Assembly (NCBI GenBank): GCA_038227875.1
Contig: JBBRPR010000055.1
Coordinates: forward strand, 1-57,285
Direction of reading: 5' to 3'
DNA length: 57,285 nucleotides
Origin: Planctomycetota bacterium
Lineage (GTDB): Bacteria > Planctomycetota > SZUA-567 > H5-PLA8
Shown here: in pieces, positions 13,552 to 36,834 of the stretch
Layout: each line of letters starts with the position of its first letter
Position numbering within the stretch: position 1 is the stretch's first letter
Made by a program: the position numbers and the translations under genes
Notes under the pieces: model-generated
What the model saw: the letters and a program-made list of their open reading frames with translations, nothing else
The model's database searches: none
What the model was told of the DNA's origin: nothing

Positions 13552-14895
13552 TCAGGGAAGTTCAGTCGGGATCTCGCGGACCGACCGCAGCGATGAACTC
13601 GAATCGACGCCGGGGTGTTCGTGTTTCAGAACGCCGATGCGCTGCGAGAGGTAAATTCCGGTATGGCCGCTGAACAGGTACGCGATGAAGCAGGCCGTCG
13701 CGATGTAGATGCCGTATTCGTGGCCGAAGAGTTCGATGCCCATGATCGTGCAGGCCAGCGGCGTGTTCGTCGCGCCGGCGAAGACCGCGACGAAACCCAG
13801 CGCCGCGAACATCTCCGGCGGTGCGCCCAGTGCGCGGCTCAGCGCGTTGCCCAGCGCCGCGCCGATGAAAAACAGCGGTGTGACTTCACCGCCCTTGAAT
13901 CCGCTCCCGACCGTCACTGCGGTGAAAAGCGTCTTCCACCACCAGCTCAACGCTGTCGCGCCGCCGACCAGGAAGCACGTCTTGATCGTCACATCTGCCG
14001 CGTCCGGCGAGGTCACGCCCAGACCCAGATAGGAACGCGTGCCAAGCAGAAACGTCAGCGCCAGGACAATTGCGCCGCCAATCACCGGCCGCAGCGGCGG
14101 CCACGCGACGAACTTCTTGTGGAGATGCTGGATGCCGTGCGTCAGTTCCGCGAAAAGCACGCTGCAGAGTCCGAACGCCACGCCGGCGAGAAGTACTTTG
14201 CCGAAGAGCACGCCGTCGAGCGCCAGGTGCTCGTGCGGCAGCGAGCTCTGCAGCAGCGCGCGGTAGTCGGTGTGGACAATCGACCAGCGCGTGCAGACCC
14301 AATCGGCGACGGTACTGGCGATGAGGCACGGGATCAGGCCTTCGTAATTCATCCGCCCGATGGCGAGCACTTCCATCGCGAAGACCGCGCCGGTGATCGG
14401 CGTGCCGAAGACCGCGCCGAATCCCGCGGCGATGCCGGCCATCAGCAGCCGCCGCGTGTTGGCTTCGTCGAGTTTCAGAACGTGGCCGAGCGAACTGGCG
14501 ATGCTGCCGCCCATCTGGACGGCCGTGCCTTCGCGCCCGGCCGAGCCGCCGAACAGATGCGTGACGAGCGTGCCGCCGAGGACGAACGGCGCCATCCGCG
14601 CTGGGACGCCGCCGCCGGGTTGGTGGATCTGTTCGACGACGAGGTTGTTGCCGCCTTCAACGCTCTTGCCGAAGTGGTGGTAGATCAGTCCGACGAATAA
14701 TCCGGCCAGCGGCAGAAAATAAATCAGATTGGGATTATCCCAGCGGAGGAATGTCACGCGGTCCAGCGACCAAAGAAAAAACGCGGTCGCCGACCCGACG
14801 AACACCGCAAGCAACGACGCGATCAGCAGCCATTTCAGGATGTAAATTGCGAGCGCGAAATGATGGCGTGGATTCCAATGAAACGGCGACGGCAT
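13552..14895 (-). CDS. eriC: CLC-F fluoride/proton antiporter (EriC-type)
   Basis: CLC-F signatures GNNLV, GREGT, GEVTP; fluoride riboswitch upstream; AAGGAG RBS before ATG 14895. Confidence 0.92.
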   Translation of the reverse strand: MPSPFHWNPRHHFALAIYILKWLLIASLLAVFVGSATAFFLWSLDRVTFLRWDNPNLIYFLPLAGLFVGLIYHHFGKSVEGGNNLVVEQIHQPGGGVPARMAPFVLGGTLVTHLFGGSAGREGTAVQMGGSIASSLGHVLKLDEANTRRLLMAGIAAGFGAVFGTPITGAVFAMEVLAIGRMNYEGLIPCLIASTVADWVCTRWSIVHTDYRALLQSSLPHEHLALDGVLFGKVLLAGVAFGLCSVLFAELTHGIQHLHKKFVAWPPLRPVIGGAIVLALTFLLGTRSYLGLGVTSPDAADVTIKTCFLVGGATALSWWWKTLFTAVTVGSGFKGGEVTPLFFIGAALGNALSRALGAPPEMFAALGFVAVFAGATNTPLACTIMGIELFGHEYGIYIATACFIAYLFSGHTGIYLSQRIGVLKHEHPGVDSSSSLRSVREIPTELP

Positions 14896-14943
14896 GAAAT
14901 GCTCCTTCAAAGCAATGCAACCCCGTGCGCGAAGCACGCTGCT

Positions 14944-15006
14944 CTGTAGGAGTTATCAGCTCGGCTTGAAATACAGCCGGCGGTTCAGGCGAACCCCATC
15001 GCCGTC
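14944..15006 (-). ncRNA. Fluoride riboswitch (crcB motif)
   Basis: Minus strand GGCGATGGGGTTCGCC-TG-AACCGCC...GCTGATAACTCCTAC matches the crcB consensus and lies ~50 nt upstream of a CLC-F gene. Confidence 0.93.
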
Positions 15007-15047
15007 ACAGTGTAGACCCGAAACACTAAGGCAAAAGCGCTCCGCTG

Positions 15048-25093: not shown

Positions 25094-26896
25094 CTATTTC
25101 TTTTTCTTGTTCTCAACCGGCAGCGTCGCGCCGAACATTCCGGCGGCGATCTGGGCTATGGCGTCGGTTTCCAGGAAGCCGAGATGGCCGCCGCTCTTCT
25201 GCAGAATCAGTTTCGCGCCGGTTTTGATTTTGGATAGCGCGTCAATGGAACCGGGAACGTTGAGCGGATCGTTCTGCGCGATGACGATCTGGACCTTGTC
25301 GCTGAGTTGCGGCAGCAGTTGGCTGAGTTCCCCCATCGCCAGCAGGTCTTCGGCCGACACGCGGGAGGTGCCGTGCCAGTACGGCGCCAGCCACGAAGCG
25401 AAGAACGCGCGGAACGACACGGAACTCGCTTCGCTTTCGCGGTCCATGATCGCGGCCTGACCGTCGCCGAGATAGTTGGTCTCCAGCGCCGACGCGCGGT
25501 TTTTCTTGATCGTGTTGAAGTAGATCCGGTCCACAGACTCCACGGTTTCGGGCAGGTCCAGCCGGAAGCTGCGGCCGATCACCTTCTGCAGCATCTCGAC
25601 GGTGGTGTCGTCGGGCATCGCCTGATGGCGTTTATTGGCTTTCAGCACGATCGGAATGATGGTGTCGTACGAGTAGGGCTGCGCTTCGAATTCATCAAGG
25701 ATGCGAAACGCGTTCTGGAAGCTGACGGGAATCGAATACACCTGCACGCGCGCGAGTTTGAACGGCAACTGTTTCGACTGATCGAGCAGCGCCATCTGCA
25801 GCGCCACCGCGCCGCCGTAGCTCAAACCCACCACGCCAATATCGGAGACTTTATCGCTGATGCCTGGCTGCTTGAGGAACATGCTGACGATGCGTCCGGC
25901 GATTTCGGCTTCGGCTTTGAAATTGCCCGGTGCGCCATACTGCGTTTCGAGCAGGAAGCGCCTCGAGAAAAACGAATCGAACGTCACCACGTTGTAGCCG
26001 GCGCGGATGTACGTGCTTTCCAGCATTTCGGCGTAGAGGTTCTGCGCTTTGCTGAACGTGCCGTTGACGATGATCACCAGCGGCCGGGGCTGGGGCTGCA
26101 GAAAGTACTGAATTTCCATCGGCGCTTTGGCGCCGGTCAGCAGGACTTTCATTTCCATCAGTGGCGGATGGTCGACTTTGCGCAGGCCGGCGGTGATCGT
26201 CTCCCAAAGGCCCTGCATCTGCGCGGCGCGGTCCTGCTCGGCCTGCGCCGGCGTCACGGTCTGATACTGCGCGGGCTCGGCCTTCAATTCCGCGGTGCGC
26301 TTGTCGGCGGCGGCGGCCTCCGCAGCCTGCTTCTGCTCGGCCGCGGCTTGTGCTTCAGCCGCGGCTTTGCGGTCGGCGGCGGCCTTGACTTCGTCGACGG
26401 TTTTCGCGACCGTTTCAAGTTGCGCCAGCGCCACCGTGGACGCGCGCCGGGCTTCCGCGGTTTCCGCACGCGCCAGTTCTGCCTGGTGCAGCGCGTCGTT
26501 CTTTGCTTTGCTCTCCGCGACGGCGCGGCCTTCCGCTTCGTCCAGACTGTGCTGCAACTCCGCACGCGCTTTTTCGTGCTCGGCGGCTTCGAGTTTCTTC
26601 TCGTCCGCCGCGCGTTCCATAGTCGCCGTCGCTTCTTTCAGCGCGGCTTCCAAGCGCGTCTTTTCGCCGCTTAAAGCAACCTGCGCTGCTTTTTCAGTCG
26701 CGATCTGCGCGGTGAGTTCGCGGTTGGCGCTATACTGTTGAAATCCAAGCACGGCCGCGCTCACAAAGGCGAGGCTGGCAGCTATAAACGATATATTCGC
26801 GGATTTTCGCGGAGTAGACGCGGCTTGGTGCCCGATGCTCGTCGCCTCAAACGGGGCAGCGGAGGCTGAGGCGGACTCCAGAGGTGCTTCGGACAT
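25094..26896 (-). CDS. Membrane-anchored coiled-coil + alpha/beta-hydrolase protein
   Basis: N-terminal hydrophobic helix, ~150-aa Ala/Glu/Lys/Gln coiled coil, GLSYG nucleophile elbow, NDP, GGHLG. Confidence 0.75.
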   Translation of the reverse strand: MSEAPLESASASAAPFEATSIGHQAASTPRKSANISFIAASLAFVSAAVLGFQQYSANRELTAQIATEKAAQVALSGEKTRLEAALKEATATMERAADEKKLEAAEHEKARAELQHSLDEAEGRAVAESKAKNDALHQAELARAETAEARRASTVALAQLETVAKTVDEVKAAADRKAAAEAQAAAEQKQAAEAAAADKRTAELKAEPAQYQTVTPAQAEQDRAAQMQGLWETITAGLRKVDHPPLMEMKVLLTGAKAPMEIQYFLQPQPRPLVIIVNGTFSKAQNLYAEMLESTYIRAGYNVVTFDSFFSRRFLLETQYGAPGNFKAEAEIAGRIVSMFLKQPGISDKVSDIGVVGLSYGGAVALQMALLDQSKQLPFKLARVQVYSIPVSFQNAFRILDEFEAQPYSYDTIIPIVLKANKRHQAMPDDTTVEMLQKVIGRSFRLDLPETVESVDRIYFNTIKKNRASALETNYLGDGQAAIMDRESEASSVSFRAFFASWLAPYWHGTSRVSAEDLLAMGELSQLLPQLSDKVQIVIAQNDPLNVPGSIDALSKIKTGAKLILQKSGGHLGFLETDAIAQIAAGMFGATLPVENKKKK

Positions 26897-27013: not shown

Positions 27014-28603
27014 TTACTGCACATCCCACATGGCAATCGGCGGGCTGTGAATGACTGAGACCGTCGCGCTCGGTCCGTGTTTGGTCTTGCCCATGCGAAT
27101 GGCTTCCTCGACGGTTGGCGCGATCAGCCAGCCCAGGCGCGCGGCGGCTTCGGTGCTCGTCGGATTGACCGAGATCACCTGCCCGCAGTGGTCCATGCCA
27201 TGGCAGCCCCAATTCCACATCGAGACGGCGTGAAAACCATGGTACGCGTTGTTGAAGCGGTACGCCTTGATGTAGCGTTCGTCGAGCGCCATCTTTTCGG
27301 AGAGTTGCGAATCGATTTCGTACGGGTCGCGCGTGTTCTTCAGATGCTCAAACAACTCCACGTAACTGGGATGATGGATCGTGTTGAATTTATTTTCGAG
27401 CGGATGGATGAAGATCATCGTCCCGCCCTTCTTCACGATCGGTTTGTTGCGGTAGAAATTGAACATGTAGCCCAGCCCCATCGCGTAGACGAGAATGGGA
27501 TTCATGATCGAGTACACGCTGTAGGGCATCACGTAGGGAATCGGGCAGACGACGATGTCCGACTGGCCCTCGATCTGGATCAACTGCTGCTTGTAGACGC
27601 TTTCCAGCGTTTTTTGGTGAACCGGTTCGGTGTCGCCGGCCTGGATGCTCGTCACGCCATAGGGCGCTTTCACGGAGAAGAAAATCGAGCGGTTAAGCGA
27701 GAGCGGCGTACAGTCGAGAAAGTGCTTGTTGACCCGTGCGGCGACCTTCTCCACAAACGACCACGACGTTTCCTGCTTCTGCATGTAGCCCAAGTGCCAT
27801 GGAAACGTGTTCGTGTTGACGGTCGTCTCGATGTGGAAAATCTTGACGTGCTTCTTGACGTACTTGCCGATGCGGTCCATCGCGTGATGCATCTTGCTGC
27901 GCGGCGGATCGTTGAAGCTGCGCGAATGGATCTGGTGGTCGCAATTGTGATTCGAACGCACGCAGCGGTACGTGGCGAGGCCTACGCCGACGGATTTGTG
28001 GCCGCCGTTCAACGCGATCATGTTCAAGTTCACGTAGATCAGCAGGTCGGACGTCGCGGAGCGCTTGTGGATCTCGACGATTTCCTTGTGGTCGGTGTGG
28101 CCGAGGACGATGTTGTCGTCCTTGTCTTCCGCGTCGTAATTGTAGAGCGTCCGCTTTTTCCAATGCGCGTTGAAGATCTTGTTGCCGACAAGCTCCCGCA
28201 CTTCCCAGTCGTGCATGTGGCGGTGCAGGCAGACGGCGACGACCAGATGCACATCCGAAACGCCGGCCGCCGCCAAGCGCTCGAGTAGCACGTCGATCAT
28301 CACCTGGCGGCAATCGGGGGCGCGCATGACGGGCAGCGAGAGCGAAATGTCGTCGAACGCGATCGTGACCTTCATGCCCGGCTTGAGGTGCGCGCGGAGC
28401 GGGTCCATGCCGATGGGATTGTCGATCGCCCGCTCGACTTCGGCGCGGAGATTCTCAAAACCCGGAAGCGGCGGCCGTGGATAGAGCACGCGCGTGCCCG
28501 CCGGAACCTTGGCGTAGACAAAGCGCTCTCCGTTGGAGAGAAAGAGCGGTCCGTCGCTGTGTTCGACGAGTTTGACCAGGCCTTCGGAGTCGACGTTTTG
28601 CAT
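27014..28603 (-). CDS. Lactate racemase (LarA/DUF2088)-like protein, ElbC-like
   Basis: AIDNPIG..PL, VTIAFDD, VAVCLHRHM, GGHKS...SNH pattern of the LarA N-terminal domain; operon with ElbD-like gene. Confidence 0.8.
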   Translation of the reverse strand: MQNVDSEGLVKLVEHSDGPLFLSNGERFVYAKVPAGTRVLYPRPPLPGFENLRAEVERAIDNPIGMDPLRAHLKPGMKVTIAFDDISLSLPVMRAPDCRQVMIDVLLERLAAAGVSDVHLVVAVCLHRHMHDWEVRELVGNKIFNAHWKKRTLYNYDAEDKDDNIVLGHTDHKEIVEIHKRSATSDLLIYVNLNMIALNGGHKSVGVGLATYRCVRSNHNCDHQIHSRSFNDPPRSKMHHAMDRIGKYVKKHVKIFHIETTVNTNTFPWHLGYMQKQETSWSFVEKVAARVNKHFLDCTPLSLNRSIFFSVKAPYGVTSIQAGDTEPVHQKTLESVYKQQLIQIEGQSDIVVCPIPYVMPYSVYSIMNPILVYAMGLGYMFNFYRNKPIVKKGGTMIFIHPLENKFNTIHHPSYVELFEHLKNTRDPYEIDSQLSEKMALDERYIKAYRFNNAYHGFHAVSMWNWGCHGMDHCGQVISVNPTSTEAAARLGWLIAPTVEEAIRMGKTKHGPSATVSVIHSPPIAMWDVQ

Positions 28604-28608
28604 GGGAA

Positions 28609-29070
28609 TTAGTACGGTATCTTTCCGATGAGTTTCCGCAATGCCGTCTGCTGTTTTTTATCCATGCATTCGTGCGGCTCGAACTTCACATCGACACGTT
28701 TGAGGATGAGGTAGCGGGACAGACCGAAACCGCTCACAATTTTCTTGATCTCCACTTCCTGCGAAAGCCCCTTGGGGAAATCGTCGCCGTGGTAGATGCC
28801 ATAGCGTCCCTCGTCCAGCAGCACGCGGCCGCGCGGCATCGAAGCTAGTAGTTCCGACAATTTTCTTCGCTTTCTCTCATTCAATTTGTACCAATCCATG
28901 AGCATGGGCACGACCGTTTTTTTCCAGTATTCAAAATGCGACGGTTCACCGTCGAGCTCATAAACCATGTGCCAAATTGGTCGCAGATAGATGTAGGACC
29001 AGATGCCTTCTGTAGCGGGACGCGCGTGGATTTCACGGACGCCACATTGCTCACTCCGACGGCTCTTCAA
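28609..29070 (-). CDS. Hypothetical protein (start uncertain)
   Basis: ORF fills the gap in the operon; stop 5 nt before next start; appears more AT-rich than neighbours. Confidence 0.6.
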   Translation of the reverse strand: MKSRRSEQCGVREIHARPATEGIWSYIYLRPIWHMVYELDGEPSHFEYWKKTVVPMLMDWYKLNERKRRKLSELLASMPRGRVLLDEGRYGIYHGDDFPKGLSQEVEIKKIVSGFGLSRYLILKRVDVKFEPHECMDKKQQTALRKLIGKIPY

Positions 29071-29404
29071 AATGCTTCGGCGTACCCAGCGCTTCGCAGT
29101 AGCCTTCCTTGAAATTGTAGTGCTCCTGGTACTGATTCGAAAACGTCTGCCGGAATTTTATGTTGCGGTGGTGGTCGCTCTTCGCTTTGAATCGCCCTGT
29201 CTTGATCGCCCATTCGTAGACCGGCTGATCCAGTTCGAATGCCGTCAGCGCGCCGGTCAGCGTTTCATCATGAATGTATTTGTGCGCGGCGTCGAACGTC
29301 GTCCAGATGGCCATGGGATTGGTCCCGCGTTCGCCCATGAACACCCAGACTTTCATGCCGCCGTACATTTCCGGAACTTCTTCGTCGTGCTTTTTTCGAG
29401 CCAT
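29051..29404 (-). CDS. Small conserved-looking hypothetical protein (VWVF.G...LTGALT..VYEWAI...QEHY.F.EG)
   Basis: Starts 2 nt after the dehydrogenase stop; globular aromatic-rich sequence. Confidence 0.72.
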   Translation of the reverse strand: MARKKHDEEVPEMYGGMKVWVFMGERGTNPMAIWTTFDAAHKYIHDETLTGALTAFELDQPVYEWAIKTGRFKAKSDHHRNIKFRQTFSNQYQEHYNFKEGYCEALGTPKHFEEPSE

Positions 29405-29406
29405 TG

Positions 29407-30657
29407 CTACTGCACCTCAAAAACAGTTTTGAACGCGCCTGTCTGACCCGCGTGATAGGCGCTTTCCAGCGCTGAGCGGTAAGCCTGCAGCGGAAACTTG
29501 CGGTTCACCAGCGGCTTCAGCCGGCCACCGCTGCTGACGAGAAAATCGAGCGCCATCTGCATCGTCCGCGTCTTTGTCTCGCCGACGTGCTCGAATCCGT
29601 ACGCATACGCGCCCTGCAAGTTCAGCTCTTTATACCAGAGACTGGTCCAGTCCACCCCGTGCGGAATTCCCGGCATGCCGGCGAGCACGATCAGGCCGCG
29701 CGGCCGCGTCAGGCGCATCGCGTCGTCGATCGACGCGCTCGAGCCGACGCAGTCGATCACCGCGTCCGCGCCGCCGAGCACCACGGGTTTGCCGATCTCC
29801 GGCTGGTACACGGCCGGAGGTGAAACGGACGGGTCGGTGCGCTCCAGCAGCCAGCGGTAAAATGCGTCGCCGGAACGGCCGCGATAAATCTCCGTTGCGC
29901 CGAAGGCCGTCGCCATCTCCGCCTGATGCGCATACCGCGCCGACGCGAGAATGCGGCCCTGCCCGCCGGCCGCGCGGTAGGCGTAAATCGTGAGCAGACC
30001 GATCGAGCCGCAGCCGAGCACCAGGATCGTCGCATCTTTTTCGCGCGGCGCTTTCAACGCGGCGTGAATGGCGCACGCGAAGGGTTCGGCGATCACGGCC
30101 TCTTCGTCGCTGAGCGTTTCCGGGACCGCGTGCAGTTGCGAATGATGAACGACGACCGACGCGGCGCTCCACCCGCCACCGGTGCTGCTGCAGTAACCGG
30201 TCTGAATTCCGCCCTTGATCGTGCCTTTCAGAATGTTCTCGCAATGCGCGAAGTGACCTTTGGCGCACGGTCGGCAGGGTGGGTTGATGCCGCGAACTTC
30301 GCAGCACAACGCCGGCTCAACGGTCACGCGCACGCCGGCCTTCCACTGCGCCGGGACGTTCGATCCGGTCTCGACGATGTTCCCGACGATTTCATGCCCA
30401 AGCACAAATGGCGTCGAGACGAACGGTGAAAAATACGGGCTGCCCTTGCAGCCGATCGCCGACAGATCCGACCCGCACACGCCACTCAGCCGTGTTTGGA
30501 TGCGCACCCAGTCGGACGCCGGCAGGGGCGGTGGCGGCAGATCGACGAGCTCGATGCACGACAACGCTCCGCTTGCCGCCGCCGACCAGCGGGACGACAT
30601 CGCGCGCACAAACAGCCAGCGCGGCACGGAACGGAAGAATTGAATCGCTTGAGGCAT
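29407..30657 (-). CDS. Zinc-dependent alcohol dehydrogenase (MDR family)
   Basis: GVCGSD, LGHEIVG, CC...C..C...C structural zinc, EPFACAIH, GCGSIG. Confidence 0.92.
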   Translation of the reverse strand: MPQAIQFFRSVPRWLFVRAMSSRWSAAASGALSCIELVDLPPPPLPASDWVRIQTRLSGVCGSDLSAIGCKGSPYFSPFVSTPFVLGHEIVGNIVETGSNVPAQWKAGVRVTVEPALCCEVRGINPPCRPCAKGHFAHCENILKGTIKGGIQTGYCSSTGGGWSAASVVVHHSQLHAVPETLSDEEAVIAEPFACAIHAALKAPREKDATILVLGCGSIGLLTIYAYRAAGGQGRILASARYAHQAEMATAFGATEIYRGRSGDAFYRWLLERTDPSVSPPAVYQPEIGKPVVLGGADAVIDCVGSSASIDDAMRLTRPRGLIVLAGMPGIPHGVDWTSLWYKELNLQGAYAYGFEHVGETKTRTMQMALDFLVSSGGRLKPLVNRKFPLQAYRSALESAYHAGQTGAFKTVFEVQ

Positions 30658-30690
30658 GTGGGCGCATTGTTACACAGATGTGGGAGGAAA

Positions 30691-31275
30691 TCATTTTCCA
30701 TTTTCGTTGCTAATCCAGCGTTTTACGTTGGGCGCGCGCCAGGTTGCAATGTTATCGAGCAGAACTTTCGTTTCGGCAGCGTAAAGAATCAATTTGCGAT
30801 GCTCGGCGTAGACGAATCCTTCGGTCACGGAATGATCGAAGAGCGTCACGAGCGGATCGAAGTAGCCGGCGACGTTCAAAAATGCGCAAGGTTTGCGGTG
30901 GATGCCGAGCTGCGACCACGTCAGTACTTCGAAAAATTCTTCGAATGTGCCGAAGCCACCGGGCAGCGCGATGAACGCGTCGGCGAGTTCGGCCATCAGC
31001 GCTTTGCGGTCGTGCATGGTTTCGACGACGCGCAGATCGGTCAGGCCGGCATGGGCGAGCTCCTTCGTCGCCAGTCCCCGCGGAATGACGCCGATGACCT
31101 CACCGCCCGCCGCCAGGCACGCGTCGGCGACCGTGCCCATCAGGCCCACGCCGCCGCCGCCGTAGACCAGTCCGATCTTCCGCTCCGCCAGCGCGCGCCC
31201 CATCTCGCGCGCGGCGGCCGCGTATTCGGGTTTGTTGCCGGAACTGGAGCCGCAGAAGACGCAGATGCGTTTCAT
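30691..31275 (-). CDS. LOG-family nucleotide monophosphate phosphoribohydrolase (TIGR00730-like)
   Basis: ICVFCGSS, LVYGGG..GLMG, MHDRK, PGGFGTFEE. Confidence 0.94.
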   Translation of the reverse strand: MKRICVFCGSSSGNKPEYAAAAREMGRALAERKIGLVYGGGGVGLMGTVADACLAAGGEVIGVIPRGLATKELAHAGLTDLRVVETMHDRKALMAELADAFIALPGGFGTFEEFFEVLTWSQLGIHRKPCAFLNVAGYFDPLVTLFDHSVTEGFVYAEHRKLILYAAETKVLLDNIATWRAPNVKRWISNENGK

Positions 31276-31288
31276 TGTTCGCTGCTTT

Positions 31289-31756
31289 CTAAATCGAGTC
31301 GCGGTGTTTCTTCGTCCACAACACGAGCAATTGTCCGGCAGCCATCAACATGAGCCAGATGAAAAAAGCGAATGTCATCTCCGACGAGAGCACCGCGCCG
31401 ACCGTGTACGCGAGTACGTCCCCGACGATCGCCGCCATCCCGAAGAGCACCATCGCCATCAGATGGCCGCGATTGTGACCGACGATGTAGTAACCCGCCG
31501 CGCCGCCGGCCGCGGAAATCAGGAGCGTGACAAAAATGCTGTGAATGAACAGTACGTGGAACGCGAAGAACAGAACGAAGCTCAACAGTCCGCCGCGTAG
31601 TGCGAGCCCCGTGGAATGCGCGGTGTTCTGGGCGAGCTTCTTCTGCTTGCGCTCACGCTCCAGCAGCGTCGCGAGCTTCACCGCCGGCGGCAGCCGTTCA
31701 AACGCCTCGTCGTCAAGGCGCGCGCGTTCCGTGGGATCGTCTGAATCGTCTGCCAT
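31289..31756 (-). CDS. Hypothetical 4-TM membrane protein
   Basis: Four hydrophobic segments; 13-nt gaps to both neighbours. Confidence 0.7.
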   Translation of the reverse strand: MADDSDDPTERARLDDEAFERLPPAVKLATLLERERKQKKLAQNTAHSTGLALRGGLLSFVLFFAFHVLFIHSIFVTLLISAAGGAAGYYIVGHNRGHLMAMVLFGMAAIVGDVLAYTVGAVLSSEMTFAFFIWLMLMAAGQLLVLWTKKHRDSI

Positions 31757-31769
31757 GACATAAGTTCCA

Positions 31770-32444
31770 TTATTTCCAGCGTTCAATAGGCCAGCCGCGC
31801 TGTGAGGCGATGCGATTCAACCGCGTATCGGGATTCACGGCCGACGGATGCCCGACAGCTTCCAACATGGCCAGATCGCCCTTGTACGAATCGCCGAACG
31901 CGAAGGAAGCGGCGAGATCGATGTTGTTGTCTTCCGCGTGTAGTCGCACCGCGTTCGCTTTGGTTTCGCCGCTCAGCGCCCCAGTGGAAAGCGCGCCGGT
32001 GAAGACACTGTTCATCTCAATCAAGCTCGGCGCAATGCAGGTCGCGCCGATCTCTTTCGCGAAGGGCATCATGACAAAGTCGAGGCCGCCGGTGACCAGC
32101 ACGATCTTGACGTTCTGATTTTTCAGCTCCTTCACGCGCTGCATCGCGCGCGGAAGAATGCGTGGCTTGAGCACTTCCTTGTAGCACTGCGCGGCGAGTT
32201 CGCGGACTTCGTCGGCGTCCATGCCCTGGTAGCTGCGGTAGATGGAGCGATTCGACGCGGCGCGGTTGATGCGGTCGAGGATGAACCAGTAAGGCCCGCG
32301 AATGGCGAGACTGGCCTTCCACAGATTCGCGAGGAACGGGCCATCGAGCTGCGTCTTGTACCAGATCAGCGGCTGAACGATGTTCGTGCGGGTGAGGGTG
32401 CCGTCGACATCGAAGTAGGCGGCGGTGCCAGGTGTCGAGGTCAT
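31770..32444 (-). CDS. HAD-superfamily subfamily IB hydrolase (ElbB-like)
   Basis: FDVDGTL motif I, LVTG motif II, K motif III, FGDS..DLAML...P.AVNPD. Confidence 0.92.
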   Translation of the reverse strand: MTSTPGTAAYFDVDGTLTRTNIVQPLIWYKTQLDGPFLANLWKASLAIRGPYWFILDRINRAASNRSIYRSYQGMDADEVRELAAQCYKEVLKPRILPRAMQRVKELKNQNVKIVLVTGGLDFVMMPFAKEIGATCIAPSLIEMNSVFTGALSTGALSGETKANAVRLHAEDNNIDLAASFAFGDSYKGDLAMLEAVGHPSAVNPDTRLNRIASQRGWPIERWK

Positions 32445-32457
32445 CCCATCGCTCCTG

Positions 32458-35400
32458 TCACTTCAGCGGCAGATTCGACAGCGCTTCCAGCTTCGCGCGG
32501 AGATGCGCGGCGGCCTTGCGGTACAGATCCGACGGCTGCGTCTTGCCCTTCTCGGCTTTCAGCACTTCGAACGAGACCGGCGCGCCGATGCGCACTTCGA
32601 TGCGCGTCGGCCGCGGCACGGACTTGCCCTTCGGCAGCGATTCGAACGTGCCGCGCAGGTACACGGGCAGCACGGGAACCTCGAGTTCAATGCCCAGCAC
32701 GCCGATACCCGGCTTGAACGCCTGCAGTTCGCCGGTCGTCGAGCGCGTGCCTTCCGGGAAAAGCAGAATGGCACGGCCGTTTTCGAGCACCGCCTTGCAC
32801 GCGTTGAGACTTTCCGTCACGTTCTCTTCGCGGTCGAACGGCAGCGCGTTGAGGAACGTCTGGAAGAACCAGCTCTTCAGGCGCGTGTTGAAGAAATAAT
32901 CCTTCGCGCCCATGACGTGGATTTCCGACGCGCGGCTGCCGAGGACTTCGCGGATCGCGACGGAGTCGAGATGGCTGCAGTGATTGGCCGTCAAAATGTA
33001 TGGCCCGGTCTGCGGCAGATTTTCCAGGCCGGTACAATCGATCGCCAGGTACGTGTTCATGAAGACCGAGGCCGAGGTACTGAACATCCCCTGCAGGATC
33101 GATTTGGAAATCGACTGCCGCATGCCGTCCTGAATACCGGTGAGCCGGTCCTGCGAGCGGTTGAAAATCGCCAGCGCGTTGCTGCCCTTCGGCGCGTCGC
33201 CGGATTTCTTCTGCGCGGCCTGCACGATCGTGATCACGTCGCGGACGCTGAAGAGCTGCGCTTCCGATTCCTGCGGGATGACGATGTCGAAGTAGAGCTC
33301 CAGCTTCTGGAGCAGGTCGACGCGGCCGATGGAGTCGATGCCCAGGTCCATCTGCAGCTTCATGTCGGGGACAATGTCCGCCGCCGCGACGCGCGGCGCG
33401 ACTTCCGCAATGGCGCGCGCGATGCCGCCGAAGATTCCCGCATCGGAGGTGCGGCTGTCGTCGGCCGAACCCGCCGGAATGTGCGTGGTCATCGACGCGG
33501 TCGCAAGCTCGCTGCCCTTCGCCTTCATGTACCGATCGCGGACTTTCGTGCGCTGCACTTTCAGCGTCGAGGTCTTGGGCAGATCGTCGGCTTGGAATTC
33601 GATGCGCGAAACACGCTGGTGGCTGGAGAGTTCCCGGCACGCGCTTTCCACGGCGGCTTTGAGCTTATCGTGCGAGGCCTTCTCTTCTGGCACGATCACG
33701 GCGGTGACTTCCTCGCCCATCCCCGACCGCGCGGGCATGCCGATGACGCAGATTTGCTTGATGCCCGCGATCCCCTGCAGCGCGGTTTCGACTTCGTCGG
33801 GATACACATTCTTTCCCGCGGCGGTGACGATCACGTCCTTCAAGCGCCCGGTGATGTGCAGGTAGCCGTCGCGGTCAATGCGGCCCAGGTCGCCGGTCTT
33901 GAACCAGCCGGCGTCAAACGCGCGCTCCGTCGCAGCGGGATTGCGCCAATAGCCCTGCATGATCGACGGCCCGCGGCCGAGCACTTCGCCGATGCCTTCG
34001 GAATTCGGCGCATCGATGCGAATTTCCACGCCGGGAACCGGCGGTCCGACGGTGCCCGCACGCGGCGAGGCCAGCGGATTGACGGCGAGAATCGGTGACG
34101 TTTCGGTCAGTCCGTAACCTTCGGTGATGGTGATGCCGAAGTTTTTGAAGAAGTGGAAAATCTCCGGATCGAGCGCCGCGCCGCCGGAGACGATCAGCCG
34201 CAGTCGTCCGCCGAACGCTTCGTGAATCTGGTTGAAGATGCGTCGCCGGGCCGTGGTGCTTCCGGCCAGTTCCCACGTTGCGGCCATGGTGTGCCCGATG
34301 CTCGCCTTCAAACGCGCGCCGGTGCCGCCGGCCTTCATCCGTTCGCGGATGCGATCCATGAACGATTGCAGCAGCCGCGGCACGCCGATCAGCACGGTGA
34401 TCTCGGCCAGCTTCATCGTCTCCGCAATGTCCTTGTGGCTTTCGATGTGGTAGATCGTCGCGCCGCCGTACATCGGAATCGTAAATCCGCCGGTGAATTC
34501 CAGCGCATGGTGGAGCGGCAGCACCGAGAGAAATCGGTCGGTCTCCATCGGTTCAAGAATCTCGGTCGTCGCCAGCGCGTTGGCGATCAGGTTGGCGTGG
34601 CTGAGCATCACGCCCTTGGGTTCGTAGGTCGTGCCGCTGGTGAAGAGCAGCGAGGCGAGCATCTCCGGCGCCGGTTCGCGCAGCGGGCGGTCGCCGAGCG
34701 ACGCTTCCGGATAGGGCACGTGATGCCCCGGGTGCGGCTGGAAATCTTCGAGCGGATTGAGGCACGGCGGCATGCCGCTGCCGGAGCTGAAGATGTCCGG
34801 CGCCGAGGCCATGATCGTCGGCGAAATGATCGCCGCGCGCGATTCCACGAGTTTGATCAGCTTCGCGGCGTCGCGGGGAAGCATCAGGCGGTCGAGCGGC
34901 ACGGCGGAACAGCACGCGAGCTGGATCGCCATGTAGCCGAGCACCCATTCGGGCCCGTTTTCGGCCATCAACGCGACGCGGTCGCCGTGATGCAACCCGA
35001 GCTGCGCCGTCAGCCGGCGCGCCAGCGCGGACGCGCGCTGGTAACATTCGACGTACGAAAGTTTCGTGACATTCCAGCCGCCTTTGGGATCGGCGCGGCG
35101 AATTTCGGCCAGCGATTTCTTGCCATAGCGTTCGGCGCCGCGGACACACAGATCAACCAGCGTCTGCGGCACGCCGCGGATCGTCGCCGACCCGCCGCGC
35201 TTCTTCGCGGCTTCGCCTTCTTCGTCGAGCAGATGACCTTCACCGGCGCCGGCGCGCGGCGGGGCTTCCATGCGCAGGATGTTGCGCTTCAGACCGGGGA
35301 TGTGGACGTCCTGCAGGTAATTCTTCCAGCGGATCTTGCGCGCGTCGAAGTCGAAGCGTTCGCGTTCATCGGGCGAAAGCTGCTCCATCAGTTCGCGGCC

Positions 35401-36834
35401 GTGCGCGGTTTCGAAACGGCACTGCAGATTCACGTACGGTCCGTAGATGTCGACGTAGTAGAGCAGTTGTTCCAGCGTGGTGTTGAGGTTGCGGAGCCGC
35501 GCGCGCATTTTGCGCGTGCCTGGCAGCATCGGCATGGGCGAATTCAGCAGCAGATTGGCGGCGCGAATCGGGCGCAGGTAACGGTTCCGCATGCGGCTGC
35601 GGTACTGATCGATCGTCGGAAAGCGCCAGCGCGGCACCGCGACCGGTTTGCCGGCGCGGTCGGTCATCGGGTGCTTCTGGAAATAATCGCGGACGTAATC
35701 GTAGAGACTGCGGAAGACCAGCGGGTTCTCTGACGAGCTGGCCACCGTGAAAAGATCGAAGCCGCCCTTTTTGGCGATGTACGCCGCGCCGGTGAGGATG
35801 CCGTTGACCACCAGGTCGGCGGGAATGATGTCGAGCACGACGTTCTGATTCGCCGGAAAATCCGCGAGGCGTCCTTTGCCAAATCCGATGATGATCGGGT
35901 CGGCCATGCGCAGACCGTCGAGCCACCCCGGCTCCGGTTCGCTCAGGCTGGATTCGATGATCGACGGCCGCACCACGATCGTCGGAATCGCGCCGTGGTT
36001 GAGCTTGATCAGCTGCTCGCCGAGGTATTTCGTGTAGGTGTACGTGTCGTTCCAGCCCAGGCTCTGCGCGCGGCGCATGCCCGCGCTGACCAGCGCGGTG
36101 CGCAGTTGCGCGATGCCCGCTTCGCTGTCGAGCGCGATGTTGTTGAGCTTCAACTGGCGTTCGCAATCGGCACGGACGGATTTGGCCAGTTCGCCCAGGC
36201 GCGCGATTTCGTCTTTCACGTCGAATTTCTTCGGGCGCTCCACGCCGGCCGGCAACTGCGCGTCGATCTGTTCGAGCGGAGCGATGAGGCGTTCGGGCAC
36301 CAGCCCCGTGCGCTTGCCGCTGACATACGCCGTGGAAATGTGGACGTACACGCCCTTGGCTTTGCGCGCCAACTCCAGCAACCGCTGCGGCCCGAGCGTG
36401 TTCAGATCCAGTGCCAGGTCGAGGCGTTCGTCGAAAACCACCGTTGCCGCGCTGTTCATCACGACTTGGACGTTCTTGGCGAGGTCATCGAATGCCGCCT
36501 GGTCCATGCCCAGCCGTTCGCGGGTGAGGTCGCCGGGGACGCAGGTGATCTTCGATTCGCAGAAGGCTTCGAAGCCGTCGCCCAGTTGCTCACGCAGGCG
36601 GCGGAAGGCGGTGTTGCGCAGAATTTCTTCACGCAACCGTTCACGCGGATCGACGCGCGAGCCGTCAGCTTTCACGCGCGGGCGGATCAGCAGGTAAATC
36701 TGGCGGATCTCAGGTAGGTCGCGGAGAATCTTCTCGACCACGGCCTTGGCCAGAAAGCCGGTCGACCCCGTCAGGAGCACACCTTTACCGGCAAAAAATT
36801 CACGAATGGAAAATGGCGCTTCGGTCTTGGACAT
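32458..36834 (-). CDS. elbD: Multidomain fatty acyl-CoA reductase - adenylation - acyl carrier - acyltransferase (ElbD-type ether-lipid enzyme)
   Basis: FAR: TGSTGFLAK, YTYTK, RPSII; A domain: FTSGTT..PKGV, GYGLTE, FKTGDLG; ACP: LGIDSI; PlsC-type AT: NHCSHLD, FPEGTRS. Confidence 0.85.
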   Translation of the reverse strand: MSKTEAPFSIREFFAGKGVLLTGSTGFLAKAVVEKILRDLPEIRQIYLLIRPRVKADGSRVDPRERLREEILRNTAFRRLREQLGDGFEAFCESKITCVPGDLTRERLGMDQAAFDDLAKNVQVVMNSAATVVFDERLDLALDLNTLGPQRLLELARKAKGVYVHISTAYVSGKRTGLVPERLIAPLEQIDAQLPAGVERPKKFDVKDEIARLGELAKSVRADCERQLKLNNIALDSEAGIAQLRTALVSAGMRRAQSLGWNDTYTYTKYLGEQLIKLNHGAIPTIVVRPSIIESSLSEPEPGWLDGLRMADPIIIGFGKGRLADFPANQNVVLDIIPADLVVNGILTGAAYIAKKGGFDLFTVASSSENPLVFRSLYDYVRDYFQKHPMTDRAGKPVAVPRWRFPTIDQYRSRMRNRYLRPIRAANLLLNSPMPMLPGTRKMRARLRNLNTTLEQLLYYVDIYGPYVNLQCRFETAHGRELMEQLSPDERERFDFDARKIRWKNYLQDVHIPGLKRNILRMEAPPRAGAGEGHLLDEEGEAAKKRGGSATIRGVPQTLVDLCVRGAERYGKKSLAEIRRADPKGGWNVTKLSYVECYQRASALARRLTAQLGLHHGDRVALMAENGPEWVLGYMAIQLACCSAVPLDRLMLPRDAAKLIKLVESRAAIISPTIMASAPDIFSSGSGMPPCLNPLEDFQPHPGHHVPYPEASLGDRPLREPAPEMLASLLFTSGTTYEPKGVMLSHANLIANALATTEILEPMETDRFLSVLPLHHALEFTGGFTIPMYGGATIYHIESHKDIAETMKLAEITVLIGVPRLLQSFMDRIRERMKAGGTGARLKASIGHTMAATWELAGSTTARRRIFNQIHEAFGGRLRLIVSGGAALDPEIFHFFKNFGITITEGYGLTETSPILAVNPLASPRAGTVGPPVPGVEIRIDAPNSEGIGEVLGRGPSIMQGYWRNPAATERAFDAGWFKTGDLGRIDRDGYLHITGRLKDVIVTAAGKNVYPDEVETALQGIAGIKQICVIGMPARSGMGEEVTAVIVPEEKASHDKLKAAVESACRELSSHQRVSRIEFQADDLPKTSTLKVQRTKVRDRYMKAKGSELATASMTTHIPAGSADDSRTSDAGIFGGIARAIAEVAPRVAAADIVPDMKLQMDLGIDSIGRVDLLQKLELYFDIVIPQESEAQLFSVRDVITIVQAAQKKSGDAPKGSNALAIFNRSQDRLTGIQDGMRQSISKSILQGMFSTSASVFMNTYLAIDCTGLENLPQTGPYILTANHCSHLDSVAIREVLGSRASEIHVMGAKDYFFNTRLKSWFFQTFLNALPFDREENVTESLNACKAVLENGRAILLFPEGTRSTTGELQAFKPGIGVLGIELEVPVLPVYLRGTFESLPKGKSVPRPTRIEVRIGAPVSFEVLKAEKGKTQPSDLYRKAAAHLRAKLEALSNLPLK

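Follow-up and report, generated by a model that had tools for sequence, protein, structure and literature searches.

The elb cluster of Myxococcus xanthus, elbABCDE (MIBiG BGC0000871), corresponds to MXAN_1531-1527 according to a PNAS figure legend, and elbD and elbE mutants are reported in a review to lose ether lipids. The same review describes a second M. xanthus ether operon encoding AGPS, a fatty acyl reductase (FAR)-acyltransferase protein and an ElbE-like short-chain dehydrogenase/reductase (SDR). It lists elbC as unknown and the ether-bond step as lacking an enzyme. Here, a related cluster was analyzed at positions 27014-36834, on the minus strand of the window, a 57,285-nt stretch of DNA that is contig C55 (JBBRPR010000055.1) of a 9.3-Mb, 88%-complete Planctomycetota genome (G000). 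Four of its genes encode homologues of ElbD, of ElbB (a HAD phosphatase) and of ElbC, and a zinc-dependent medium-chain dehydrogenase/reductase (MDR). With a probability of about 0.6, these genes form an elb-family cluster that makes 1-O-alkyl glycerol lipids, in which the MDR likely acts as ElbE and ElbC is predicted to bind nickel-pincer nucleotide (NPN) as a cofactor and possibly forms the ether bond.

Related clusters have been described elsewhere. The available portions of published surveys count elbD homologues in 33 Planctomycetota metagenome-assembled genomes, describe elb-like clusters in sponge Poribacteria and Acidobacteriota (PMC9426513; bioRxiv 10.64898/2026.06.23.733905) and propose that Subdivision 4 Acidobacteria use elb. 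The sponge clusters share a full-length elbD together with elbB with the window but differ in phylum, and an MDR-ElbC pair is not mentioned in the consulted part of their main text. A 2023 paper reports, by its title, mixed ether/ester lipids in five Rubrobacterales species. The MDR variant was also found in Rubrobacterales loci in the present analysis. That paper reportedly proposes an elb-like operon as well, in which case the MDR variant would already have been described.

A similar neighborhood is listed for LarAH group 14 (Frankia, Rubrobacter, Acidimicrobium, Ilumatobacter) in Table S1 of Desguin 2020, with LarAH, an acyltransferase (COG0204), a HAD (COG0560), COG1063 and a thioester reductase (COG3320); the consulted sections of that paper do not link it to ether lipids. 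The actinobacterial loci compared here carry this set as FAR-HAD, MDR, ElbC and acyltransferase. They differ from the window in that FAR is fused to HAD, the acyltransferase is a protein of its own, and adenylation and acyl carrier protein (ACP) domains are absent.

Like that of M. xanthus, the window cluster encodes an ElbD with this order of four domains, a HAD phosphatase and an ElbC of the LarA group whose key residues agree; it has no ElbA or ElbE SDR and has the MDR. Its gene order is D-B-(MDR)-C, with four passenger genes inserted, versus A-B-C-D-E, and neither its ElbC nor its adenylation domain groups within the myxobacterial-type clades. The window holds an intact MDR-type elb variant in an uncultured planctomycete family, not a new system, and many phyla have this variant. 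An earlier reading made from the sequence alone (hereafter, the sequence-only reading) was not aware of such a route being characterized in the lineage; the MDR variant does occur in this planctomycete, but it is widespread and elbD was already on record for the phylum. A lineage-specific route was rejected because the MDR variant is also present in Actinomycetota, Chloroflexota and Poribacteria. The planctomycete occurrence alone is a modest range extension.

The ElbD and HAD homologues

The ElbD homologue (1458 aa; 32458..36834, minus strand) was identified from Pfam domains, motifs and full-length alignment. Its domains run in the order FAR (PF07993 and PF03015), adenylation (PF00501 and PF13193), ACP (PF00550) and PlsC-type acyltransferase (PF01553). 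All motifs checked are intact, as had been claimed for this protein: GSTGFLA at 23, YTYTK at 265-269, FTSGTT at 731, EGYGLTE at 905, TGDLG at 980, GRLKDVI at 996, PKTSTLKV at 1086, the ACP serine at 1168, HX4D at 1285-1290 and FPEGTRS at 1359. Metagenome loci found with an alignment of myxobacterial-type ElbC, including one member named Myxococcales, served as stand-ins for the M. xanthus elb proteins. Several of these loci read SDR-HAD-ElbC-ElbD-SDR, as in the published order. The window protein is 31% identical to the ElbD of one such locus over 1513 columns and is colinear with it through all four domains.

In an adenylation-domain tree (FastTree, 35 domains; 4 outgroups; long branches), the window protein clusters with ElbD-type proteins. 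Its immediate group, which has weak support, includes Poribacteria and other MDR-type loci; the myxobacterial-type clade is adjacent, and three ligases of the same genome lie elsewhere. The colinear homology and the tree uphold the earlier assignment to ElbD. A Pfam scan detected no WS/DGAT acyltransferase domain, the C-terminus giving only the PlsC-type PF01553, and on these grounds a wax-ester synthase fusion was rejected. The elbD genes of two relatives (G008:C95 and G010:C103) carry one in-frame stop; either the assembly is in error here or the gene is naturally split in the FAR domain or close to it.

The adjoining HAD-IB phosphatase (224 aa; 31770..32444, minus strand; TIGR01490 above cut-off) is the ElbB homologue and is 32–40% identical to the HADs of myxobacterial-type loci. 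Family models confirmed its identity together with those of the zinc-dependent MDR and the LarA-like (Lar_N) protein.

ElbC and the nickel-pincer cofactor

The LarA-like ElbC (529 aa; 27014..28603, minus strand) is the most informative gene of the cluster and was passed over in the sequence-only reading. It was assigned as a one-histidine LarA-family protein from its family score, structural model and residues, with 747 bits on NF052592 (LarAH14/15/16; cut-off 740). Given the locus tags of elbA-E, elbC is MXAN_1529. Dataset S2 of Desguin 2020, whose rows were compared by eye, places MXAN_1529 in LarAH group 15 with D72, H108, K184 and H200 kept and H174 absent; 8 of the 12 group 15 rows examined are myxobacterial. 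The sequence-only reading had placed a DUF2088 gene in the elb cluster, and MXAN_1529 indeed belongs to the same LarA group as the window protein, which is 39–45% identical to myxobacterial-type ElbC. A quick tree of ElbC groups the window protein in a clade of 27 rows, most of them from MDR-type loci, and separates it from the ElbE-type clade. A 33%-identical ElbC homologue with an N-terminal extension was also seen joined to a chlorophyll a/b-binding domain (P0132, a cluster of 13 ENA sequences); it looks green-algal and is possibly two genes called as one.

An AlphaFold model of the window ElbC (predicted local distance difference test score 88.6) has its best fold matches in LarA_Sp and LarA_Bw (PDB 9Q3K/9Q2U and 9Q3J; Z 41 and 37). 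It lies closest to 9Q3K (Z 41.0, root-mean-square deviation 2.2, 451 residues aligned). As far as the consulted part of its description goes, LarA_Sp holds NPN covalently through K195 and H211, has H115, N185, Y307 and H401 in its active site and does not racemize lactate. In a HMMER alignment its D73, H115, N185, K195, H211, Y307 and H401 match ElbC D85, H127, N194, K203, H219, Y361 and H458, all invariant in 88/88 ElbC sequences; overall, neither the NPN-anchoring Lys and His nor seven further positions occupied by histidine or polar residues vary in this set. In its model and alignment, ElbC thus appears as a LarA fold with the thioamide Lys, the nickel-binding His and the ribose-binding Asp at matching positions, and it is predicted to bind the NPN cofactor. 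The one-histidine LarA enzymes differ from ElbC in several respects: identity is ~24%, their phosphate-binding K76 aligns with L88 and H306 with P360, and the LarA_Sp and LarA_Bw genes lie among glycolytic genes, whereas the window ElbC lies among lipid genes.

The second racemase histidine is absent from ElbC, with Asn194 or a gap in its place, Leu88 stands at the Arg75 position and H127 is the sole catalytic histidine. Ordinary racemization by ElbC is therefore unlikely, and a lactate or 2-hydroxy-acid racemase was rejected on the missing second His (H174) and Arg75. Gluconate epimerase activity was not transferred to ElbC because the 'LarAH15' of a 2025 JBC paper is a Phytophthora protein. 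No link between ElbC and NPN, and no mention of MXAN_1529, was found in the literature searched, which covered few subscription journals.

A pathway can be proposed in which each step in the planctomycete is conditional. The ElbD adenylation domain would activate a fatty acid and load it onto the ACP, in line with the ACP and ligase activities that the review reports in vitro for M. xanthus ElbD, and the FAR domain would reduce the chain to an aldehyde or alcohol. NPN-loaded ElbC might then join the alkyl chain to C1 of a triose-phosphate backbone through transient hydride removal and return, a step that is put forward only tentatively and at less than even odds. It is proposed because NPN can shuttle hydride between molecules, according to the consulted literature, and because the nearest structures to ElbC, the one-histidine LarA enzymes, are encoded beside triose-phosphate genes. 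The product would be 1-alkyl-dihydroxyacetone phosphate (1-alkyl-DHAP), as from the flavin enzyme AGPS in animals. The NADPH-type MDR would reduce the C2 ketone to 1-alkyl-glycerol-3-phosphate, the acyltransferase would acylate the triose-phosphate or glycerol-phosphate backbone, and the HAD would remove the phosphate toward neutral or head-group-bearing ether lipids.

When the two M. xanthus ether operons are matched gene for gene, ElbC falls in the AGPS slot. The AGPS route (animal AGPS; M. xanthus MXAN_1676-1674) would then share FAR, acyltransferase, an ether-forming enzyme and a ketone reductase with the elb route, although AGPS is an FAD enzyme unrelated to ElbC and their equivalence is hypothetical. 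AGPS was not found in the 88%-complete G000, neither of whose two PF02913 proteins is nearest to AGPS, and PF09989 (a PlsA/Ger component) was not found in that genome either.

The distribution of the NPN synthesis genes bears on the role of ElbC. G000 has larB, larC and larE above cut-off, and it also has three other Lar_N matches, so the presence of these genes alone does not tie the cofactor to ElbC. A sample with almost no other LarA was therefore chosen: 151 genomes of the class of Aquihabitans, which we take to be Acidimicrobiia. ElbC was present in 34 of these, LarB in 33 and both in 32, so that LarB accompanies 32/34 ElbC-positive versus 1/117 ElbC-negative genomes. On an RpoB tree of 96 of them (33/34 positives and 63/117 negatives, of which the last 30 were picked for their similarity to a positive genome), 5 changes of ElbC and 7 of LarB were counted. 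Three lineages lost both. One isolated genome gained both, with the lar genes directly beside the cluster; two Solirubrobacterales-type loci likewise have adjoining lar genes. Four cases in Thermoleophilia add little either way: two ElbC proteins above cut-off and two strong partial matches all occur with LarB, which is present in 61/121 genomes overall. A dependence of ElbC on the NPN synthesis genes is suggestive, not established.

A divergent LarA-like family, 20–25% identical to ElbC, was seen in 16 Thermoleophilia genomes (L108-L111 and 12 further), none with LarB. Lipid genes are absent nearby in the four loci examined (L108-L111), and this family may be an NPN-independent offshoot.

Several observations weigh against an ether-forming, NPN-dependent ElbC or against the ether lipid assignment as a whole. 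The co-occurrence of ElbC and LarB is mostly inherited and reduces to only five independent events: of the five independent pairs, four changed in concert and none in opposition (p=0.125). LarB and LarE are both missing from 11/50 cluster-carrying genomes, a sample that covers 50 of the 80 loci and favors long contigs; six of these 11 are near-single-contig, all five tested also have no LarC, and their ElbC keeps K203 and H219. Frankia LarAH14 showed no activity in any of seven racemase assays, and the literature examined contained no ether-forming enzyme of the LarA family. Five of the 16 relatives in the window's family have ElbD but no ElbC; two of these five retain the full MDR and one carries an elbD stop. 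The window FAR domain is just 26–36% identical to myxobacterial-type FARs. According to the review, FAR and acyltransferase activity were not detected for purified ElbD, only elbD and elbE mutants gave clear M. xanthus phenotypes, and no elbC mutant is mentioned in its consulted sections. Pontiella is reported to have elbD homologues but no detected ether lipids, and published sponge clusters include some with elbD and elbB alone.

Some of these points would fit a different division of labor, in which ether lipids are made but ElbC is accessory or NPN-independent and the ether bond is formed by ElbD together with the reductase. ElbC could then act on the glycerol backbone or on a 2-hydroxy fatty acid, for example as a one-way epimerase or as a dehydrogenase. 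The six near-complete genomes with an intact locus and no LarB or LarE, the relatives with ElbD alone and the M. xanthus phenotypes are consistent with this, as is the fact that all characterized LarA enzymes act at C2 of 2-hydroxy acids. Such a role is nevertheless distinctly unlikely. Against it stand the invariance of the NPN-anchoring Lys and His and the seven further residues, and the missing second histidine and carboxylate-binding Arg75; in addition, no ElbD domain appears to have evident ether-forming chemistry. The joint losses of ElbC and LarB in three lineages, and their gain with adjacent lar genes in one, also count against it.

The six near-complete genomes (G061, G062, G067, G068, G076 and G078; loci L055, L057, L063, L066, L086 and L089) are Acidimicrobiales, five of them labelled Aldehydirespirator-type. 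Their loci have intact FAR-HAD, ElbC and acyltransferase genes and keep the NPN-anchoring residues although LarB and LarE were not found, which could mean cofactor uptake or an NPN-independent ElbC.

If ElbC does form the ether bond, a broader proposal follows: aerobic bacteria of at least seven phyla may form the lipid ether bond with a nickel-pincer ElbC, a non-homologous counterpart of AGPS, with MDR and SDR as interchangeable ketone reductases. This generalization is somewhat unlikely as it stands. If true, the NPN cofactor would gain a role in lipid synthesis and bacterial ether lipids would depend on nickel. With ElbC as an NPN enzyme and the MDR or SDR as the ketone reductase, each gene has a testable job, including the elbC gene and the ether-bond step that the review leaves without one. 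[quoted passage not shown]

The zinc-dependent dehydrogenase and the ElbE reductase

Among solved structures, the best match to the zinc-dependent MDR (29407..30657, minus strand) is the NADP(H) ketose reductase 1E3J; other polyol dehydrogenases come next. The MDR has a Cys-His-Glu catalytic zinc site and a four-Cys structural zinc site, with the ligand positions C61, H88, E89, E191, C119, C128, C131 and C139 invariant in 56/56 sequences. Residue 240 is Ala or Gly in all 56, and residue 241 is Lys or Arg in 55/56. Ala/Gly-Lys/Arg at this site marks NADPH use, whereas NAD-specific enzymes have Asp. By this signature, the MDR is classed as an NADPH-type polyol/ketose reductase. Such an enzyme would suit a biosynthetic role in which a C2 ketone is reduced.

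The distribution of the MDR points the same way. ElbE orthologues were present in 11 loci examined, none of which has the MDR (0/11). No ElbE or ElbA orthologue was found at 150 bits in the MDR loci examined, some of which have weaker SDR matches nearby. The ElbE SDR was not found in the window cluster, and the best match in the genome, on another contig, is 30–34% identical, versus at least 38% among ElbE orthologues. In 5/5 genomes tested whose locus is without the MDR, an MDR orthologue (54–59%) is present elsewhere in the genome. COG1063 is presumably the zinc-dependent dehydrogenase, although the published table that lists it labels it phosphoserine phosphatase. In that table (Desguin 2020, Table S1), group 14 occurs with COG1063 and group 15 with COG0451.

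The MDR likely does the job of ElbE, as the sequence-only reading had supposed when it let an MDR stand in for the SDR; the mutual exclusion in 11 loci and the NADPH ketose reductase as closest structure both bear this out. An ether-lipid route with the MDR in the place of ElbE is probable, and slightly more so than the complete assignment given at the outset.

Two observations on reductase genes were made in other loci. In G050, whose elb-type locus is without the MDR, larC lies ~8 kb and larB ~9 kb from the MDR orthologue (L275; G050:C2:90000-109000). Two cyanobacterial loci (L032 and L056; Leptolyngbya and Elainella) have an acyltransferase, HAD, SDR and ElbC but no MDR, and L032 also has an adenylation domain and two more SDRs. 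By score, these SDRs are not ElbE orthologues, and they may be a third reductase variant.

The same genes could also carry out another chemistry, in which fatty aldehyde from ElbD and glycerol phosphate give a hemiacetal that ElbC, recharged by the MDR, reduces to the ether. The review's report of i15:0 aldehyde in wild-type M. xanthus but not in elbD mutants, with no fatty alcohol detected, would suit this scheme, as would the ability of NPN enzymes to shuttle hydride between molecules. However, the MDR is closest to ketose/polyol reductases, not to aldehyde or long-chain alcohol dehydrogenases, and the ElbE-like SDR also accompanies the AGPS route, as the review describes it, where a ketone apparently must be reduced. 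The hemiacetal route, with the MDR as a hydride supplier in place of an alkyl-DHAP reductase, is judged improbable.

Conservation of the core and surrounding genes

Loci of the LarA-like gene were compared across GTDB as the best 80 of 595, many of them cut by contig ends and two being duplicate family relatives. Of these 80, 73 have HAD, 68 have FAR, 65 have an acyltransferase and 47 have the MDR. They span Actinomycetota, Chloroflexota, Planctomycetota, Poribacteria, Zixibacteria and Cyanobacteria. Actinomycetotal loci consist of the FAR-HAD fusion, MDR, ElbC and acyltransferase. Four metagenome loci (L160, L176, L188 and L190) have contiguous ElbD-HAD-MDR-ElbC, the window order without its passengers, and a Poribacteria locus (L028) has ElbD, 40% identical to that of the window, next to MDR-ElbC.

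Among 16 relatives in the window's family, ElbD was present in 15, MDR in 12 and ElbC in 10, and all ten with ElbC also have the MDR. Beyond this family, 24 genomes sampled from its order or class yielded no ElbC. ElbD and MDR-ElbC lie ≤20 kb apart in only three family genomes (G000, G001 and G008), and in opposite directions in two. This spacing, the five genomes in which ElbD persists without ElbC and the Pontiella report would fit ElbD and HAD as a stand-alone module for fatty alcohol, wax-like ester or acyl-glycerolipid, with MDR-ElbC a separate neighbor and no ether lipid made. That explanation is more improbable still, as FAR, HAD and acyltransferase accompany ElbC in 65–73 of the best 80 loci in six phyla, the contiguous four-gene order recurs in four distant loci, the adenylation domain groups with the ElbD type and away from the genome's own ligases in a tree with 4 outgroups, and the acyltransferase is PlsC-type with no wax-ester synthase domain detected.

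The eight minus-strand open reading frames (ORFs) described in the sequence-only reading are all present in the window, separated from the ElbD gene onward by 13, 13, 13, 33 and 2 nt, a 20-nt overlap and 5 nt. The second 13-nt gap assumes that the third gene starts at ATG 31756; a start at the first TTG in frame (31786) would overlap the HAD gene. The ether-lipid operon of eight genes proposed there stood in part: the elb core is present, but it comprises only four of the eight genes (ElbD, HAD, MDR and ElbC). The other four are passengers that do not travel with the core, and a conserved eight-gene operon was rejected for this reason. Co-transcription of all eight may be inferred from their spacing. 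The flanking CLC, aldehyde dehydrogenase and hydrolase genes are also on the minus strand, with gaps of 59, 81 and 117 nt, so the limits of the transcription unit are uncertain. Scanning for promoters and terminators gave chance-level counts (2 versus 3.7 expected; 23 versus 19.3).

The first passenger is a 155-aa hydrophobic ORF (31289..31756, minus strand) with no Pfam family above cut-off and not found in related loci examined. It is followed by a LOG-family nucleotide phosphoribohydrolase gene (30691..31275, minus strand; TIGR00730 above cut-off), which adjoins elbD in four family relatives (L015, L115, L116 and L124) and is absent from the distant loci examined; it is a passenger locally linked to elbD-HAD. 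A DUF7710 gene (29051..29404, minus strand; PF24819) adjoins the LarA-like gene in two family relatives. The last, a 153-aa orphan ORF with a TTG start (28609..29070, minus strand), is an uncertain gene: its G+C content at third codon positions is 0.64 versus 0.71–0.83 in neighboring genes, it has no Pfam or Atlas match, and no homologue was found among related loci examined.

The nearest named homologues are from Planctomycetota and then Verrucomicrobiota, in agreement with the PVC-superphylum (Planctomycetota, Verrucomicrobiota, Chlamydiota) host suggested earlier. The contig begins with the 3' part of a 23S rRNA (1-790, Rfam) and a 5S rRNA (1192-1302). Downstream of the cluster, 25094-26896 encodes a 600-aa protein whose N-terminal half is rich in alanine and probably coiled-coil and whose C-terminal half is an alpha/beta-hydrolase. 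The genome has three paralogues of this protein, and related loci did not show it. A fluoride riboswitch (14940-15012, minus strand) lies directly upstream of a CLC-like gene (13552-14937), and the pair (13552-15012) is likely a fluoride exporter of known kind.

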